Shown here: positions 31,172 to 54,608 of the stretch, piece after piece
Numbering within the stretch: position 1 is the first letter of the stretch
How the letters are laid out: every line of letters begins with the position of its first letter
Source: a virus
Length of the DNA stretch: 64,000 nt
IMG/VR virus record: IMGVR_UViG_3300028607_002670
Reading direction: 5' to 3' (one strand)
The notes under the pieces: model-generated
Told to the model about the DNA's origin: nothing
The model's database searches: none
Seen by the model: only the letters and a program-made list of their open reading frames with translations
Program-made: the position numbers and the translations under genes

Positions 31172-31248
31172 GGGACATTAGCTCAATTGGACAGAGCAAG
31201 GTGTTTCTACCGCCTAGGTTGCAGATTCGAGTTCTGCATGTCCCACCA
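31172..31248 (+). tRNA. tRNA-Arg (anticodon UCU)
   Basis: Hand-folded cloverleaf: GGGACAT/ATGTCCC acceptor, GCTC-AATTGGACA-GAGC D arm, AGGTG-TTTCTAC-CGCCT anticodon arm, AGGTT variable loop, GCAGA-TTCGAGT-TCTGC T arm, A + encoded CCA. Confidence 0.85.
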
Positions 31249-31252
31249 CATT

Positions 31253-31327
31253 GCGAGATTAGTTTAATTGGTAAAATAGTAGCCTTCCAAGCTTCAGTCA
31301 TGGGATCGTAACCCATATCTCGCTCCA
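31253..31327 (+). tRNA. tRNA-Gly (anticodon UCC)
   Basis: GCGAGAT/ATCTCGC acceptor, GTTT-AATTGGTA-AAAT D arm, GTAGC-CTTCCAA-GCTTC anticodon arm (one T-T mismatch), ATGGG-ATCGTAA-CCCAT T arm (atypical loop), T + encoded CCA. Confidence 0.7.
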
Positions 31328-32993: not shown

Positions 32994-33044
32994 TGGGTAA
33001 ATGATGATAGTTTTTAATAATGTTAATTTTATGGGGAGAGGAAT

Positions 33045-33356
33045 ATGAAAGAGTTTAAATTTATGAATGGTTGTGAATTAGAAGCAACAAAAGAAGTGTT
33101 TCAACTTTTAGAAGGTAATCCGTTTTGCCATACATGGGGTATGTATAGAGAAGGTGATTTGGAAAAGGTTTGTATTTGTTTCAAGGATATTTCAGGAGAA
33201 GAGTATTTACTGGAATGGTACAGCAATCAAGAAGACCTTTTTGAAGTTTATTCTGATTTAACAGATATTGATTTGGGTATGGAGTTTTATGATTATAAAC
33301 TTGTCAAGGATGTAGTAAATTACCTAAACAGTTTACCACACTTTAGAAAGATTTAG
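33045..33356 (+). CDS. hypothetical protein (103 aa)
   Basis: ORF track; GGGGAGAGGAAT precedes the ATG. Confidence 0.55.
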   Translation: MKEFKFMNGCELEATKEVFQLLEGNPFCHTWGMYREGDLEKVCICFKDISGEEYLLEWYSNQEDLFEVYSDLTDIDLGMEFYDYKLVKDVVNYLNSLPHFRKI

Positions 33357-33372
33357 TCTTGGAGGAGTAGAT

Positions 33373-34182
33373 ATGATCTGGAATAATATCACCTTTCCTG
33401 TCAAAGAAGAGTGGAAAGATATCGAAGGTTACGAAGGTATTTATAAAGTTAGTAATTATGGCAGGGTGAAGAGTCTGTCCAGAGATATTCACTACCACAG
33501 GAACGGAAAAATGACTTCTATCTTTAAGAAAGGAAGGTTACTTAAACCCAAGACAGACAAGGATGGTTATAAAGAGTTATGTATGACTTCCTCTGAAGGT
33601 ATTAGGAAATACAAGAGAGTGCACCGTATCGTGGCAGAAGCTTTCTTAGAAGAAACTCACATAGATAACGCTGTGATAGACCACATAGATAATACCAAAG
33701 ACAATAATATTTGGTACAATCTGCAATGGATGACTTCTACTCAGAATACTATAAAGTATTACGCAGAAGATTACAGTAAAAGTAGAACTTTAAGTTCCTT
33801 AACAAAAGAGGAGTTTGCTAGGATAGGTGAACTTTACAATAAAGGTTTACTTTACCCTGAGATTATAGATGAAATGGGTTTGACGGTAGAAAGTCCCTCC
33901 ACTTTATGGGAAGTTCTATGTGGGAGAAGGTTGTCTAGCGTATCTGGTTTTAAAGAGGGAGATTTTAAAACAAGACCTCACCCTACTACGAAATTAACTG
34001 AAGATGATGTAGTACAAATAATTAAAGAAAGAATTATAGATAAACAAAAGTTAAAAGTGTTGTCAGAGAAATGGGGTGTAGCTGAGTCCATGATAAGTAG
34101 ATTTACTAAAGGTACTCGACAACCTTCCGCTTATATTAAATTCAAAGAAAGGTATAATTATGACAAAGAAAAAGAAGAGTGA
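33373..34182 (+). mobile_element. free-standing HNH homing endonuclease (NUMOD4 + HNH_3 + C-terminal HTH)
   Basis: WKDIEGYEGIYKVSNYGRVKSL (NUMOD4-like); HRIVAEAFL...VIDHIDNTKDNNIWYNLQWMTSTQN (HNH_3-like). Its 3' end overlaps terminase exon 1 by 23 nt. Confidence 0.75.
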
Positions 34183-36219
34183 ACCACTCTTCAAACCCGC
34201 CAGTGAGAAGCAAGCTCTTATTCTTAAAAGGGCTTCTGACACACAGGTGACTATTATTGGTGGAGCTTAAAAATCCAGTGGTTCCACATTAAATAACCCT
34301 GCTAATTCGATGAAGGCTAAGTGTACTACATAAGCTAATATCGAGCCGAATGATTAAATTCATGGGTGTAGAGATCAATCGTGATGAGTGTAACGATGTA
34401 GGGGCCAAGTGGCTTCCAAACGTAGGGCTATGTTATAACATAGAAGATATGATCCGACAACACAGGAAACTGTGGAAAGAGAGTAACGCCTCTAAAACTG
34501 ATCCTGAAAAATGGCTGGTTCAGGAAAAAGTTATCTATTGCAAATGATCCCTTTAATGTTAATAGATGATCCCAATTCGGAAATGGTAATGTTCCGTAGA
34601 ACTAATCCCCAGATAAAAGGTGCGGGTGGTATATTTAGCACAGGTTGCGGAATATACAATCAGCTCCCTCCTAATATAAGACCAAAGATTAAAACAGGTG
34701 ACCTAGAAGTTATATTCCCTACCAAAGACGAGAAAGGTAGGCGTAGTTATAATGGTGCCAAGATAAAATATCAACAAGCAGAAAATGTAGAACAAAGTAA
34801 ACTAAATGCCCAAGGTTTGCAATGGACTTTTGTTGGTATAGATGAGGGTTAATTGTAGCCCCTTAATGTAGGAATACATTTAGAAAATCCCGTGAATTCA
34901 GGGGAAGCCTCTAGTAGGTAATCCTGAGCGAAGCTCGAAAGAGAACGTGCAACGACTATCCTGAAAAGGAGTACACAACAAGCTAATGGTTGTGGAAGCG
35001 CGGGACACCTAGAACAGGTGATGATATAGTCTGAACTTCTATGGTGACATAGAGCAGCCATAATAGGCGGAAGATGACTTGCAAACATCTTTGAACACAA
35101 TTGACACAATTCGAATGGAGTCAGATAGAATATTTCATGTCTCGACTCAGGTCACAATCAAAACATTTCTCCCGTATGGTTATATCTTGTAACCCGTCAC
35201 CCTCTCATGAGATTAAGAAGATGATCTCATTCTACTTGACAGATGACGGATATCCTGACCCTAAAAAGGACGGTTTAGTTAGGTATTTCATACAAAGAGA
35301 CGGTGAGTACATATGGGGAGAAACAAGGGAAGAATTAGGAACAAGGTTTGATATTCCTGAAAAAGATTGGGAAAACTTAATTCTATCTTTCAGCTTCGTG
35401 AGCGCAAATATTTATGATAATCCTCCGATGATTGAGAGCAACCCAGCTTACCTCGGCTTCTTAGAAGGTTTGAATGAAATTGACAAAGCTCAACTATTAC
35501 ATGGTTGCTGGGCAGAATTTGCATTCGGAAGTAAATACTTTAAACGTGATTGGATAGATCACGTAGATAAAGTACCTACAGATGGTCTCACTGTTAGGGC
35601 ATACGATTTCGGAGCATCTGAAAGAACCATGTCAAACAAGAACCCCGATCCAACAGTAAGTATAAAAATGCATAAAAGTAAAGATGGCTATTATACTTTA
35701 ATGGGTGATTACCACGAAGACTTCTATGACAAAGTGGATGATATTCAAGGGGCAATGTATCTCAGTTCTGGGGAAAGGGATAGAGTAATGTTAAAACAGG
35801 CTGCATTTGACGGTTCAGAAGTTTACCTTGTTGGTCCGCAAGATCCTGCTGCGGCTGGAAAAGCCCTTTGGAATCAACAAGCTAAGTACTTTGCAGAAGA
35901 AGGTTATATTTATAAAAAAGACCCCATGCCTATAACAAAGAATAAACTTACCAAGTTCTTACCTTTTGCAACAAGTGCAGAGAATGGTTTGATACGTATA
36001 GTTAAGTCCACTTTTTCAGAGAACACTTATAATCATATAATGAAACAGTTGGAAAACTTTGATGGTGAAAGATCAACCAAAACCAAAAAGGATGACTTTG
36101 CAGATGCTATAGCTTCGGCTTACAACTTCCTATCCAAAGAAAGAGTAATCCGCGCCTACAGCCTCCCAGACACCACTTCTCCAACAGCTTACACCTCTTA
36201 CCGCAAGTCTATCCGATGA
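34160..36219 (+). CDS. terL: terminase large subunit, three exons: join(34160..34267, 34514..34849, 35104..36219), 519 aa
   Basis: Exon 1 (my translation): MTKKKKSEPLFKPASEKQALILKRASDTQVTIIGGA. Joined to exon 2 it restores Walker A IIGGA|AGSGKSYLLQ. Exon 2/3 junction: Walker B FVGIDEG|TQFEWSQIEYFMSRLRS. Exon lengths sum to 1560 nt, in frame. Each 5' exon ends in T and each intron ends in G. Confidence 0.8.
34268..34513 (+). mobile_element. group I intron 1 in terL (246 nt, ORF-less)
   Basis: Exon-end GGAGCU can pair with intron GGUUCC (34280..34285), giving P1 with a U-G wobble at the splice site. The intron ends in G and starts with an in-frame TAA. GATATGATCC + CACAG-GAAA-CTGTG near the 3' end looks like P7/P8. 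Confidence 0.65.
34850..35103 (+). mobile_element. group I intron 2 in terL (254 nt, ORF-less, td-like IA2 core)
   Basis: Exon GGGU pairs with intron GCCC (34858..34861). TAATTG.., GGGGAAGCCTCTAGTAGGTAATCC, CAACGACTATCC, GATATAGTCTG and CTATGGTGACATAGAGC closely resemble the T4 td intron core as I recall it. Ends in G. Confidence 0.75.
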
Positions 36220-51390: not shown

Positions 51391-54300
51391 ATGTCTAATA
51401 TAATTGAAGAATTTGTAATAAAGTTTCTCACTGATTCTAAGGAAGCTAAGAAGGGTGCTCAAGAGATTGATAAACTTCTTGACAGTGTAGGTAAAAAACA
51501 AGTTAAACGTGCTACAACCAATGCAAAGGTTGAAAATAAAGCACACAAAACAATGTTAGCAAAGAAACTAAAGGACGAAGCTACTTACGGAAGGGATAGT
51601 CGTATTCAAGCTGATAAGGCTCGTAAGGCATGGGAACGTAGGGAAAAGATTAAATCCATCATGCCAAATAACCAACTTGCTAATAAAAGTGCTCAAAGTA
51701 GTGCTAGTGTTTTCGAAAAAAGTTTCAAAGAAGAAGCTGTACAATCAGCAAAACTTTCTGAAATGGAAAGGAAGCGGTGGGTTGATAAGCAAAAACGTAG
51801 AGCTGCTAATAGAAGGCAAAGGGAAGATGATCGGAGGCAAGAAGAGGATTCTTATAGAAAGTCTCTTAATAATCGCCTAAAAGCTTTCAAGGCTTCTAAA
51901 CAAAAAGAACGAAAACTTACAGAAGATATAGACAAGCAAGCTGCAATGATCCGTAGAACGGCGGGGTTCAAACTTGCGGGACGTATGGGCGAAAGTGGTA
52001 AATATGACAGCGAGATACAACGTTTAGTAGATAAGAAAGACCTTGCGGGACTGAGAAACCTTCGCTACGAGATGTCTGATGTTCGTGAAAATATGACTCG
52101 TTATCGTAAGAGTTTAAGGAAAACTAACATTGCTCAAAAAGGACTTACCGATTCTACAAGGAATATGATCCGTAGTTATGCAAGTTTATATGCTATTTTT
52201 GAAGGAACCACTGCAATTAAGCGGGTAGGGCAAGACTTTCAGGGGATGGAGGCATCTATGTTGGCTGCAAGTGGTAGTACTGAAGCTGCTGCAAAGGATA
52301 TGATGTTTATAAATGGAATTGTTGATGAAATGGGTCTTAGTTTAAAAGATACTACAGACGCTTTTGTTAAGTTTAAATTTGCATCAAAAGGAAAAATTTC
52401 CCAAACGGAACAAGAGGACTTATTCACAGGATTGAGTATGTTCGGGACAGCATTGAAGGTAGATGATGAAAGCATGAAGCGAAGTCAGAAAGCCTTGATC
52501 CAGATGATGTCCAAGGGAAAAATTATGGCAGAAGAATTAAAAAACCAGTTAAAACAAAGACTTAGCTGCCTAGTATAGAAATGTACTAGTGAAAAACTCC
52601 TTTAATTGTCTGGGAAGCCGTAAAACTTTACTTTTATAAAATATAATGTTAATATAGTATTTTATAGAGTAGAGATATATTGGTAATCAGCAGCGAAGAC
52701 CACTTATATCTCCTGAAACAGGAGAGTGAAATGATAAAAGATATACCTAATTTTTCAGGGTATTTTGCAGATGTAGATGGTAATATCTACTCTAGCAAAA
52801 AGGGTAATATAATTAAGAAATTAACACCGCAGTATCAAAAACAGTGGGGTTATTATTCTTTGAGGCTTATAGCAGATTGCGGTAATAAGAAGCACATGAC
52901 AGTTCACAGACTAATGGCTCTAACTTACCTGCCAAACCCTGATAACCTACCAGAAGTAAACCATAAGAACGGAGTGAAAACCGATAACAGGTTATCAAAC
53001 CTAGAATGGATGTCTAAGAGTGATAATATTAAACACGCTTACCAGATAGGTATGAACTGTGTAAAAGGTGTTCTCAACGGAAGGTCAACTTTAGAAGAAC
53101 AAGAAGTTTTAGAGATTTATAACAAACTTTACCAAGGTGTTAGTACAAATAGCTTAATGCAAGAGTACAATACAAGTAGGAGCATTATCAGTAATATAAA
53201 AAGAAGAGAAGCTTGGTCACATTTAACCAAAGACCTTCCTGATATTACTATAAAAGTTAAATCTAAGACTCTTCCTGAAAATATTGTCAGGTTTATATGT
53301 GAGAACCTAGAAAGGGGTTTATCTCCTACAAAAATACTAACCTTGTGTTTGGAAACTTTTGGAGAAGGTTCAGTACGAATCGATAATATCTATGATATAA
53401 AGAGACGTAGAGGTTTTAAAAATATCTTATCAGATTATAAATGGTAACGTTCAACGATCATTGAAAGCTAACTGTAAAACAGTGCGAGTAAAGTACAGCC
53501 TAAGTTTATGAGGTAGATGTGGTGAGTAATAATCATGTAATCCATCTTTAAATGGAAATGGGGAGAACCTAAACAAGTTAAGTTGTAGGTTAAGATATGA
53601 TCTAGTCTTGCATGAAAGTGCAAGCTGATACAAGGATGTTACGGGAGAGGTGTTACGAGCCTCTTCGAATACAACGTAGGTGATAGTTTGCCAGGGGCAG
53701 TGCAAATATTTACAAGGGCTTTAGGAGTCACTGAAGCTGAACTATTCAAAATGATGGAACAAGGTCAACTCCTTTCAGCAGAAGTATTACCAAAAGTAGC
53801 AGCCGAGTTTAAAAAATCAGCAAAAGAAGGTGGGGCATACACACTAGCCTTACAAGGACTACGTGTTAAAGAAGGTCAATTTATGACTGGAATGCAACGT
53901 GCAGGGAAAACCATATTCAACTCAGGTTTTGAAAAAGGGTTAGCAAACCTTTATGGCACACTGTCAACCATGTTCGAAAACTCAGAACCCCAACTTAAAA
54001 AATTAGGTAAAATATTTGGTGATGTATTCAATGGAATATCCATTGCCATAAAAGTATTAGAACCTATTATGAAAATTGCCATAGATAACTTTTACACACT
54101 TGTAGGGGCAAAGGCAATCTTTATGGTAAGGGGTTTTGTTGGTGCATTAAATGCACAAAGTTACATTGCAGCAAGAGCATGGGCTAGAATGTTTGCCCCT
54201 GTAGCAGCAGCGTTAGTTTTAGTAGATGAATTAGCTTCTCTAATGGACGATTCCCGTTTAGGTTTACTTGAGAAGAGTATTGGTAAACAGGTGAACGTTA

Positions 54301-54608
54301 AAACAGGAAGTATTAGCGAATTTACTGAGAAGAATGGTAAGTTTTATGCGAAAGAGGGAAGCAGTAGCAAAGTGTCAGGACTTTCAATGGGGTTCAGTGC
54401 AGTGTCTAATGCTGTCCAGAATATGAATCCATTCCACTCAGTTTATAATGCTGCTACGTCAGCTTCGGATTTATTCCAATCAGGTATGACTTCTGGAAGT
54501 GCAGTGTATAACCATTATCAAAATACATTCAACAATACTCAAGCTGATGATGTTAAACGTGCAGTGGGTGCAGGTGTATCTGCAGCACAACAACCAAGAG
54601 GAAAATAA
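51391..54608 (+). CDS. tape measure protein, two exons: join(51391..52549, 53677..54608), 696 aa
   Basis: The junction restores the conserved TMP core ..[50 protein letters not shown]. The exons sum to 2091 nt, in frame. Confidence 0.8.
52550..53676 (+). mobile_element. group I intron in the tape measure gene (1127 nt) carrying an HNH endonuclease ORF
   Basis: The 5' exon ends in U (CAGU pairs with intron GCUG 52565..52568) and the intron ends in G. CAACGATCATT ... AAGATATGATCTAGTCTTGCATGAAAGTGCAAGC resembles td-type P7/P8. Confidence 0.7.
52731..53447 (+). CDS. intron-encoded HNH homing endonuclease (NUMOD4/HNH_3 type)
   Basis: IPNFSGYFADVDGNIYS; VHRLMALTYL...EVNHKNGVKTDNRLSNLEWMSKSDN. Paralogous to 33373..34182. 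Start at ATG 52731 after CAGGAGAG. Confidence 0.75.
   Translation: MIKDIPNFSGYFADVDGNIYSSKKGNIIKKLTPQYQKQWGYYSLRLIADCGNKKHMTVHRLMALTYLPNPDNLPEVNHKNGVKTDNRLSNLEWMSKSDNIKHAYQIGMNCVKGVLNGRSTLEEQEVLEIYNKLYQGVSTNSLMQEYNTSRSIISNIKRREAWSHLTKDLPDITIKVKSKTLPENIVRFICENLERGLSPTKILTLCLETFGEGSVRIDNIYDIKRRRGFKNILSDYKW

Follow-up and report, generated by a model that had tools for sequence, protein, structure and literature searches.

Background

Group I introns are found in the gene for the large terminase (TerL), terL, of several phages. In ICP1, splicing joins a short exon for the N-terminal part of TerL to a long one for the C-terminal part, as seen by RNA sequencing and by reverse transcription PCR, and the annotated stop and start codons between them are removed (Barth, Dunham & Seed, NAR Genomics and Bioinformatics 2023, PMC10448857). 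Multi-intron terL genes are present in Bastillevirinae, with splicing verified for terL of SIOphi and phiAGATE (PMC11878797), and terL introns have been described in the Shewanella phages 1/4, 1/40 and KASIA, with splicing verified for KASIA (PMC8541194). The DNA considered here, called the window, is a stretch of 64,000 nucleotides (nt) of a marine phage, from IMG/VR virus record IMGVR_UViG_3300028607_002670. Its terL is very probably one gene cut by two group I introns that lack an open reading frame (ORF-less introns), one in the Walker A codons (intron 1) and one at the Walker B codons (intron 2), both of which are spliced out of the pre-mRNA. An earlier reading of the letters alone (the original prediction) had proposed these three exons and two introns, and the proposal holds up against the Rfam family RF00028 for intron 2 (intron 1 scores just under the cut-off), a gap-free protein alignment, covariation, the ICP1 precedent and selection.

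Free-standing endonucleases have also been linked to the movement of introns. Collaborative homing, as cited in PMC10448857, includes the psbA intron of cyanophage S-PM2 with F-CphI and cases in T3/T7-like phages (Zeng et al. 2009; Bonocora & Shub 2009), and T4 mobE is involved in trans-homing of the nrdB intron (PMC2790892). For an ORF-less intron next to such an endonuclease gene, Barth et al. discuss either collaborative homing or endonuclease turnover (PMC10448857).

The reading frame of terL

The terL gene lies where it is expected, ahead of the portal gene, and is present in three pieces. The first ORF (34160-34270) encodes 36 amino acids (aa) and ends in ..VTIIGGA followed by TAA; the second (34511-34852) reads M-AGSGKSYLLQ...FVGIDEG followed again by TAA; and the third piece opens with TQFEWSQIEYFMSRLRS at 35104 and runs to a stop at 36219. 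The intervening gaps are 246 nt (34268-34513) and 254 nt (34850-35103). Joining of the exons (108 + 336 + 1116 = 1560 nt) yields a single frame that encodes a TerL of 519 aa. The ends of the pieces, the 254-nt gap and the in-frame sum of 1560 nt are all as originally described.

Two Pfam families match the product of the joined exons, Terminase_6N at residues 32-299 (E 1.6e-17) and Terminase_6C at residues 393-489 (E 3.5e-9). The organization of a Terminase_6 (T4-like) protein, an N-terminal ATPase with Walker A and Walker B motifs followed by a C-terminal RNaseH-like nuclease, is seen only in this spliced product. A search of PDB sequences with spliced TerL gave no match at E<=0.01. Alignment with an intron-less terminase, which the original prediction had put forward as a check, is provided by the uninterrupted TerL of Vibrio phage RYC: the two proteins are 60% identical, and the alignment is free of gaps over both junctions, reading IGGAAGSGKSYLLQ at Walker A and G(I/V)DEGTQFEW at Walker B. 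Because the bases that flank each proposed 5' and 3' site differ, the junctions cannot be slid without an altered product. Positions of the exons, the introns and their helices, and the neighbouring genes are given in Table 1 (^ marks an exon/intron boundary or an insertion site here and below).

Table 1. Coordinates of terL, its two introns and the adjoining upstream region in the window
Feature	Position	Strand	Description	Basis
terL exon 1	34160..34267	+	36 codons; last residues ..IIGGA form the first half of the P-loop (Walker A)	ORF list, RYC TerL alignment
terL exon 2	34514..34849	+	112 codons (AGSGKS...FVGIDEG), Walker A lysine through Walker B/catalytic DE
terL exon 3	35104..36219	+	371 codons and stop; remainder of the ATPase domain and the nuclease domain
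Intron 1	34268..34513	+	group I intron of 246 nt, ORF-less, within the Walker A codons; in-frame UAA at 34268-34270; ends G34513
Intron 1 P1 hairpin	34260..34287	+	exon GUGGAGCU (34260-34267) with guide GGUUCCAC (34280-34287); U34267-G34280 at the 5' splice site
Intron 1 P10 guide CCAGU	34275..34279	+	pairs with GCUGG, the first five bases of exon 2 (34514-34518)
Intron 1 core	34373..34454	+	P7 5' strand (34373-34377) to P7 3' strand (34450-34454)
Helices inside intron 1 core			P7.1 34378-34397; P7.2 34401-34416; P3 3' strand 34422-34427; P8 34428-34443
Intron 2	34850..35103	+	td-like group I intron of 254 nt, ORF-less, inserted right behind the ..DEG codons of Walker B; in-frame UAA at 34850-34852; ends G35103
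Intron 2 P1 hairpin	34846..34861	+	GGGU^UA (34846-34851) with UAGCCC (34856-34861); U34849-G34858 at the 5' splice site
Intron 2 P3	34888-34894 / 34999-35005
Intron 2 core	34954..35031	+	P7 GACUA (34954-34958) / UAGUC (35027-35031); encloses P7.1, P7.2, P3 3' strand and P8
Free-standing HNH homing endonuclease gene (NUMOD4 + HNH_3)	33373..34182	+		Pfam NUMOD4 E 4e-14, HNH_3 E 1.3e-7
Replaceable cassette upstream of terL	33040..34159	+	in the window, a 103-aa ORF and the HNH gene

Both interruptions have structural features expected of group I introns. Each contains core helices P3-P8 and a P3/P7 pseudoknot with the guanosine-binding site, each has a U-G wobble at its 5' splice site within a P1 helix (8 bp in intron 1, 6 bp in intron 2), and each ends in G (G34513 and G35103), with a P10 of 5 bp in intron 1. 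The splice-site rules invoked originally are obeyed, since both 5' exons end in U (34267 and 34849) and both introns in G. The guide pairings put forward at the same time are right as to the two wobbles; for intron 1 the P1 helix is longer than had been stated, with 8 bp formed by 34260-34267 and 34280-34287. Both introns have a td-like architecture that includes P7.1 and P7.2.

Intron 1, a family at one Walker A site

The RF00028 score of intron 1 is 48.6 bits, with E 2e-11 when searched locally and 2.6e-9 when the whole window is searched. Homologues are detected by blastn in 230 phage records; the closest are those of Vibrio phages, with 81-85% identity, and all ICP1 isolates are among them (81.8% nt identity). 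The family is found at one Walker A site, ..GGTGGNGCT / intron / GCNGG (GGNGCU^GCNGG), in at least eight phages, and spans phages of Vibrio, Aeromonas and Pseudoalteromonas, in TerL proteins whose identity with that of the window goes down to 27%. When the junction is placed in ICP1 by homology, the stop codon of exon 1 (L007 2503-2505) and the TTG start of exon 2 (2759-2761) both fall inside the intron, in agreement with the published splicing (PMC10448857).

Covariation within the family was assessed on an alignment (A1) of eight phages, namely the window, ICP1, IBT_VpB-34, 1.161.O, 1.170.O, 1.187.O, PH357 and PAc, on which helices P1, P10, P3, P4, P5, P6, P6a, P7 (pseudoknot), P7.1, P7.2, P8, P9 and P9.1 were specified. 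Standard pairs occupy 94.6% of the cells, a figure that is inflated by drawing the structure on the window sequence, compared with 35-40% after the 3' partners are slid by 1-3 columns. Compensatory pairs, with both sides changed, make up 36/65, a count that is free of this inflation, compared with 5-9 in the slid alignments, and shuffled controls do not reach any of the observed measures (0/500). The variable pair in P1 is A-U in the window, U-A in ICP1 and G-C in PH357. P10 is CCAGU/GCUGG in most members and changes in a compensatory manner to CCUGU/GCAGG in Vibrio phage 1.170.O. Likewise, P7 is GAUCA/UGAUC in the window and GACUA/UAGUC or GACCA/UGGUC in relatives.

One member of the family departs from this pattern. 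The homologue in Vibrio phage 1.187.O (L002 1609-1861) ends in ..TTACAA before GCTGG, without the terminal G that all other members have, and contains an insertion of 11 nt after P7. This copy may use a shifted splice site that gives GGAGSGKS, or it may be impaired.

Intron 2, a td-like intron at Walker B

Intron 2 is recognized by RF00028 over the full model (1-253) with 97.1 bits (E 7.9e-24), in a match that spans 34840-35054. Its helices, assigned by hand from P1 to P9.2 (including P2, P4, P5, P6, P6a, P8 and P9), are all fully canonical (14/14) and agree with the Rfam alignment; the Rfam match stops 49 nt short of G35103, and hairpins P9.1 and P9.2 fill this stretch. The presence of P7.1 and P7.2 groups intron 2 with the td-like phage introns. 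Blocks of the T4 td intron core that had been named in the original prediction are indeed present in the T4 record, in the same order: TAATTG, GGGGAA, AACGACTATCC, GATATAGTCTG and ATGGTGACAT. AATCC follows GGGGAA in T4 td too (it also occurs elsewhere in the td gene), and CCTCTAGTAG of intron 2 reads CTCTAGTAG there. The 5' junction, GGGT^TAATTG, is identical in the two introns.

By blastn the nearest relatives of intron 2 are in SPbeta bnrdE, in Twort-like phages, in T7-like primase/helicase genes and in the DNA polymerase gene of an Aeromonas phage, with 70-78% identity over the core. A distant blastn search against phages for the same intron at a Walker B site gave only this 70-78% core similarity, from introns in other genes. 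In IMG/VR, the 21-mer of the core is found in about 50 further stretches, none near a relative of the window TerL, and the junction 16-mer has two matches (L019, L021) that are due to chance and are not introns. A second insertion in terL of IBT_VpB-34 was considered as an occupant of the same site and set aside, since it lies about 8 codons before Walker B. From these comparisons the Walker B insertion site appears to be new, not having been found occupied outside relatives that are 93-95% identical to the window.

An 8-nt direct repeat lies across the 3' splice site of intron 2, with one copy at 35095-35102 (ACACAATT-G) and the other at 35104-35111 (ACACAATT-C). The upstream copy is unusable as an in-frame alternative 3' site. 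The repeat could be a P10 decoy, the footprint of an insertion or a product of chance.

Close relatives and selection

The same terL with both introns is kept in two IMG/VR contigs (L015 and L016, about 95% nt identity) and in a metagenome contig (L072, 93%). Relative to L015, codon differences in the exons are synonymous in 76 cases and non-synonymous in 10, divided as 5/0 in exon 1, 7/1 in exon 2 and 64/9 in exon 3. As judged from these counts, all three exons are under purifying selection, the 36-codon exon 1 included.

Intron 1 has eight differences from L015: two are the two sides of a compensatory change in P7.2 (34405/34412, C-G to U-A), one (34403) converts a G-U pair to A-U, and the other five are outside the modelled helices. 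All four of the differences in intron 2 (4/4) are outside the modelled helices. Taken together, the intron changes of L015 and L016 with respect to the window are found only in loops or are compensatory.

Proposed splicing of terL and alternative explanations

The reading of terL as one split gene is carried by the exon/intron boundaries, ribozyme structure, covariation and conservation of these two introns and by purifying selection on the joined frame, each observed directly. RNA evidence of splicing, obtained by others, covers only the ICP1 homologue of intron 1; both introns of the window are predicted to be spliced, and autocatalytically. Each would fold into a P3-P9 ribozyme core, after which a free guanosine bound in P7 would attack the phosphate 3' of the exon-terminal U, which is held in the U-G wobble of P1 (U34267-G34280 in intron 1, U34849-G34858 in intron 2). 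The freed 3'-OH of the exon would then attack after the terminal G (G34513 or G35103), positioned in intron 1 by the 5-bp P10. Ligation would restore Walker A as GGA^AGSGKS and Walker B, with the catalytic Glu, as GIDEG^TQF, and so produce the 519-aa terminase. The first codon of each intron is an in-frame UAA; thus, ribosomes on unspliced RNA would stop at the boundary and would not traverse the ribozyme. In phage group I introns, a translation stop at the boundary should spare the ribozyme fold from ribosomes. Exon 2 is 336 nt and in frame; conceivably, as a lesser variant, it may also be skipped in the way seen for SIOphi terL, which would give an ATPase-dead isoform.

Several points weigh against this reading. 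The search with RF00028, suggested originally as a check, places intron 2 well above the curated gathering threshold of 50 bits and intron 1 below it by 1.4 bits, despite an E value of 2e-11. In addition, the alignment made by Rfam misplaces P1 of intron 1, the structure of intron 1 was drawn on the window sequence as noted above, and the P10 of intron 2, with about 3 bp as judged by eye, is weak. Finally, some group I introns in phage terL and polymerase genes splice in vivo and not in vitro (PMC11878797), such that strict self-splicing is not guaranteed. The P1 given by Rfam, which lies within exon 1 and uses non-canonical pairs, was dropped in favour of the guide pairing of the original prediction, which extends to 8 bp and covaries. 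As to the score, homologues of intron 1 obtain 42.1 bits (ICP1), 66.8 bits (1.170.O) and 75.4 bits (1.187.O) on the same model. Since the verified ICP1 intron scores only 42.1 bits, the shortfall of intron 1 is probably a limit of the RF00028 model and hardly evidence against the intron.

The alternative that survives best leaves the introns in place and changes only how they are removed: both would be true group I introns spliced in vivo, with at least one needing a protein or other cellular factor, so that plain GTP and Mg would not suffice. There is precedent for this, as several Bastillevirinae introns in terL, polymerase and ribonucleotide reductase genes are spliced during infection and not in vitro (PMC11878797); moreover, P10 and several peripheral helices of intron 2 are short. 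Against it, both cores are complete and canonical, and intron 2 closely resembles td-type phage introns, which makes a need for such a factor rather unlikely here. Introns of the td type, such as those of T4 td and SPbeta bnrdE, self-splice.

It is far less probable that at least one intron has decayed and no longer splices, which would leave terL as a pseudogene and packaging to another gene. The score of intron 1 below the Rfam gathering value is in line with decay, and the block of HNH gene plus terL is foreign to the backbone that the window shares with phages HM1 and J2-1 (see below), so that it could be a recent, imperfect acquisition. However, the core helices and both splice-site pairings are all intact, and the relatives at 93-95% identity keep both introns, with the changes in L015 and L016 confined to loops or compensatory within the introns and with 76 synonymous versus 10 non-synonymous changes in the exons. 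The gene also has its expected place before the portal gene, and no other terminase turned up in the 64-kb window, although no search was aimed at one.

Least probable, to the point of being nearly negligible, is that the three ORFs are translated separately and assemble without RNA splicing, as for the nrdA gene of phage Aeh1 that is split by a homing endonuclease gene: an in-frame ATG (34511-34513) does precede exon 2, the ORF finder starts the exon 3 ORF at TTG 35101, and the pieces appear as separate coding sequences (CDSs) in the database entries for relatives, but the breaks lie inside the P-loop (GGA^AGSGKS) and right after the catalytic DE, from which an active site could hardly be rebuilt by separate chains, the intervening DNA consists of covarying ribozymes, the ICP1 homologue is spliced, and the triplet before exon 2 is TCG, TTG, AAG or ATG in the intron family, so that the start is not conserved and the case of pieces with starts of their own, named in the original prediction as one that would speak against introns, finds no support.

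The slot upstream of terL and possible intron mobility

Neither intron carries an endonuclease of its own, and both are too short to hold such a gene. At 246 and 254 nt, the introns hold a single ORF between them (34350-34547, 65 aa), which has no Pfam match, overlaps the ribozyme core and enters exon 2 out of frame. Neither intron can move by itself. Their spread has most likely been passive, via co-conversion with the flanking exons, or has been aided by the adjoining free-standing homing endonuclease gene, which lies upstream and overlaps the start of terL by 23 nt. A role of this HNH enzyme in intron mobility would follow the pattern of the collaborative homing cases. Its closest homologue (52%) precedes a terL that has no intron and belongs to another lineage; the Walker A sequence there is different, so the homologue argues neither way on the target of the HNH enzyme. 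A scan of IMG/VR and the JGI metagenomes for an intron-less allele in close relatives gave only intron-containing copies (L015, L016 and L072) and no empty site that would attest to recent mobility.

The contents of the region ahead of terL change between near-identical phages. For L015 and L016 (95% identical), homology with the window is lost after 33039 and returns precisely at the ATG of terL (34160), making the start codon of terL the boundary of the swap. Both contigs have a GIY-YIG nuclease in this slot; in L016 (2132-3000) it is a gene of 295 aa that replaces the 103-aa ORF and the HNH gene. The metagenome contig L072 (1-423) has a third ORF, a zinc-finger protein that is unclassified, with only a weak Pfam match, to the zinc-finger DUF4379. 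Its BLASTP match to the T5orf172 protein of RYC is confined to the zinc-finger repeats. All three slot ORFs end in ..DKEKEE because this tail is encoded in the overlap with terL. Other relatives likewise have a nuclease-type gene upstream of terL, which is of the T5orf172 type (ICP1, and RYC with its intron-less terL), a GIY-YIG gene (1.187.O and 424E50-1) or a gene for a CapR-domain protein (PH357 and PAc).

It is conceivable, though doubtful, that the introns and the endonuclease slot work as one mobile terL "cassette". The occupant of the slot (33040-34159), be it the HNH enzyme, the GIY-YIG nuclease or the zinc-finger ORF product, would cut within or close to the Walker A or Walker B codons when a co-infecting phage has an intron-less terL. 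The donor genome would be protected from this cut by its introns, and during repair the recipient would acquire the nuclease gene together with the introns and a large part of terL. If true, this would explain how a terL that is 60% identical to that of RYC comes to lie in the backbone of a Pseudoalteromonas phage whose closest relatives have a terL only 31-35% identical.

The window phage is a relative of the Pseudoalteromonas phages HM1 (L005) and J2-1 (L006), with 79-95% nt identity on both sides of 33015-36063. The block of HNH gene plus terL has no nucleotide match in HM1 or J2-1, whose TerL proteins are 31-35% identical to that of the window. Homology resumes within the last ~75-155 nt of terL, at 36064 in HM1 and at 36145 in J2-1. 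On these alignments, the difference from HM1 and J2-1 looks like an exchange of the whole cassette with a breakpoint in the 3' end of terL.

Other interrupted genes and annotation

A second gene of the window is also split. In a tape-measure-like gene (51391-54608), ORFs 51391-52578 and 53688-54608 are about 1.1 kb apart, and the spacer contains an HNH_3 ORF (52680-53447, E 3e-9) together with a sub-threshold RF00028 match (53492-53624, 28 bits, E 5e-5 locally). This spacer is probably a third group I intron, one that carries an endonuclease, like the tape-measure introns of ICP1. HM1 and J2-1 are interrupted at the tape-measure-like gene too. Further upstream in the window, two adjacent tRNA genes precede the terL region (31172-31245 and 31253-31324, with 63 and 57 bits); a run at gathering thresholds listed the second only.

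Some of the relatives appear to hold further unannotated introns. In J2-1 (L006 ~590-1000), a different terL has GGAGGT^TGTTAATT.., a guide GCCTCC and a core that is 69% similar to that of intron 1, which suggests an unannotated intron within the Walker A codons of this terL. The candidate has no Rfam match at E<=0.001, and the annotated terL CDS starts far downstream of it. In HM1, a sub-threshold RF00028 match (L005 17432-17625, 36 bits) lies in a portal gene insertion of ~1 kb relative to window 37387/37391.

Gene callers break the essential terL of the window into three pieces, an orphan of 36 aa, a fragment of 113 aa and a "terminase" of 372 aa, and the same error is found in the records of several relatives. 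In GenBank (L004, L008, L009, L010, L011 and L013), the Walker A exon is called a "hypothetical protein" or is absent, and terL is annotated from the second exon only. With exon 1 misannotated in this way, the intron 1 family goes unannotated in many genomes of Vibrio, Aeromonas and Pseudoalteromonas phages.

The locus offers little that is new in kind. Its value lies mainly in annotation and in a clean natural series for intron and endonuclease dynamics, in which phages of 93-95% identity keep the same two introns while three unrelated ORFs, two or more of which are homing-type nucleases, occupy the slot next to them. Two published proposals thereby become testable by phage crosses, namely, that the turnover of endonucleases gives rise to ORF-less introns and that such introns are retained because they protect against nucleases encoded nearby.

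Comparison with known systems

Among the closest described systems is terL of ICP1. Its intron is homologous to intron 1 (81.8% nt identity), has the identical Walker A insertion point and is ORF-less as well, and in both phages exon 1 is immediately preceded by a free-standing homing endonuclease gene. Unlike the window, ICP1 has one terL intron only, and the neighbouring endonuclease is of the T5orf172 type instead of HNH. The ICP1 TerL is also of another lineage; that of its close relative 1.161.O is 27% identical to TerL of the window.

Intron 2 agrees with the T4 td intron in its core blocks, in their order and in the 5' junction GGGU^UAAUUG, and with td-like phage introns in general in the P7.1/P7.2 extension. 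It differs from T4 td in its location, the Walker B codons of terL, and in having no internal endonuclease ORF, whereas td carries I-TevI.

As in the window, terL of the Bastillevirinae, of the Shewanella phages and of Vibrio phage 1.187.O is broken by one to three group I introns. The terL of 1.187.O, which is 55% identical to that of the window, contains three RF00028 matches of 75-90 bits; the first of these introns occupies the Walker A site of the window, and SCNP^P and IYD^NP are the sites of the other two. Other terL introns in these groups are at SCNP^P, IYD^NP and LLHG^NW, sites not used in the window. Many of them hold an internal endonuclease ORF, unlike those of the window, and the hosts and TerL clades also differ.

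With the cases of collaborative homing, the window shares the arrangement of an ORF-less intron in an essential gene beside a free-standing homing endonuclease gene. In the window, the two stand side by side with a putative link between enzyme and intron site, and the slots of near-identical relatives hold other ORFs, at least one of which is a nuclease of a different family. Intron 1 is a member of a published family, and the arrangement with a neighbouring endonuclease has been published as well.

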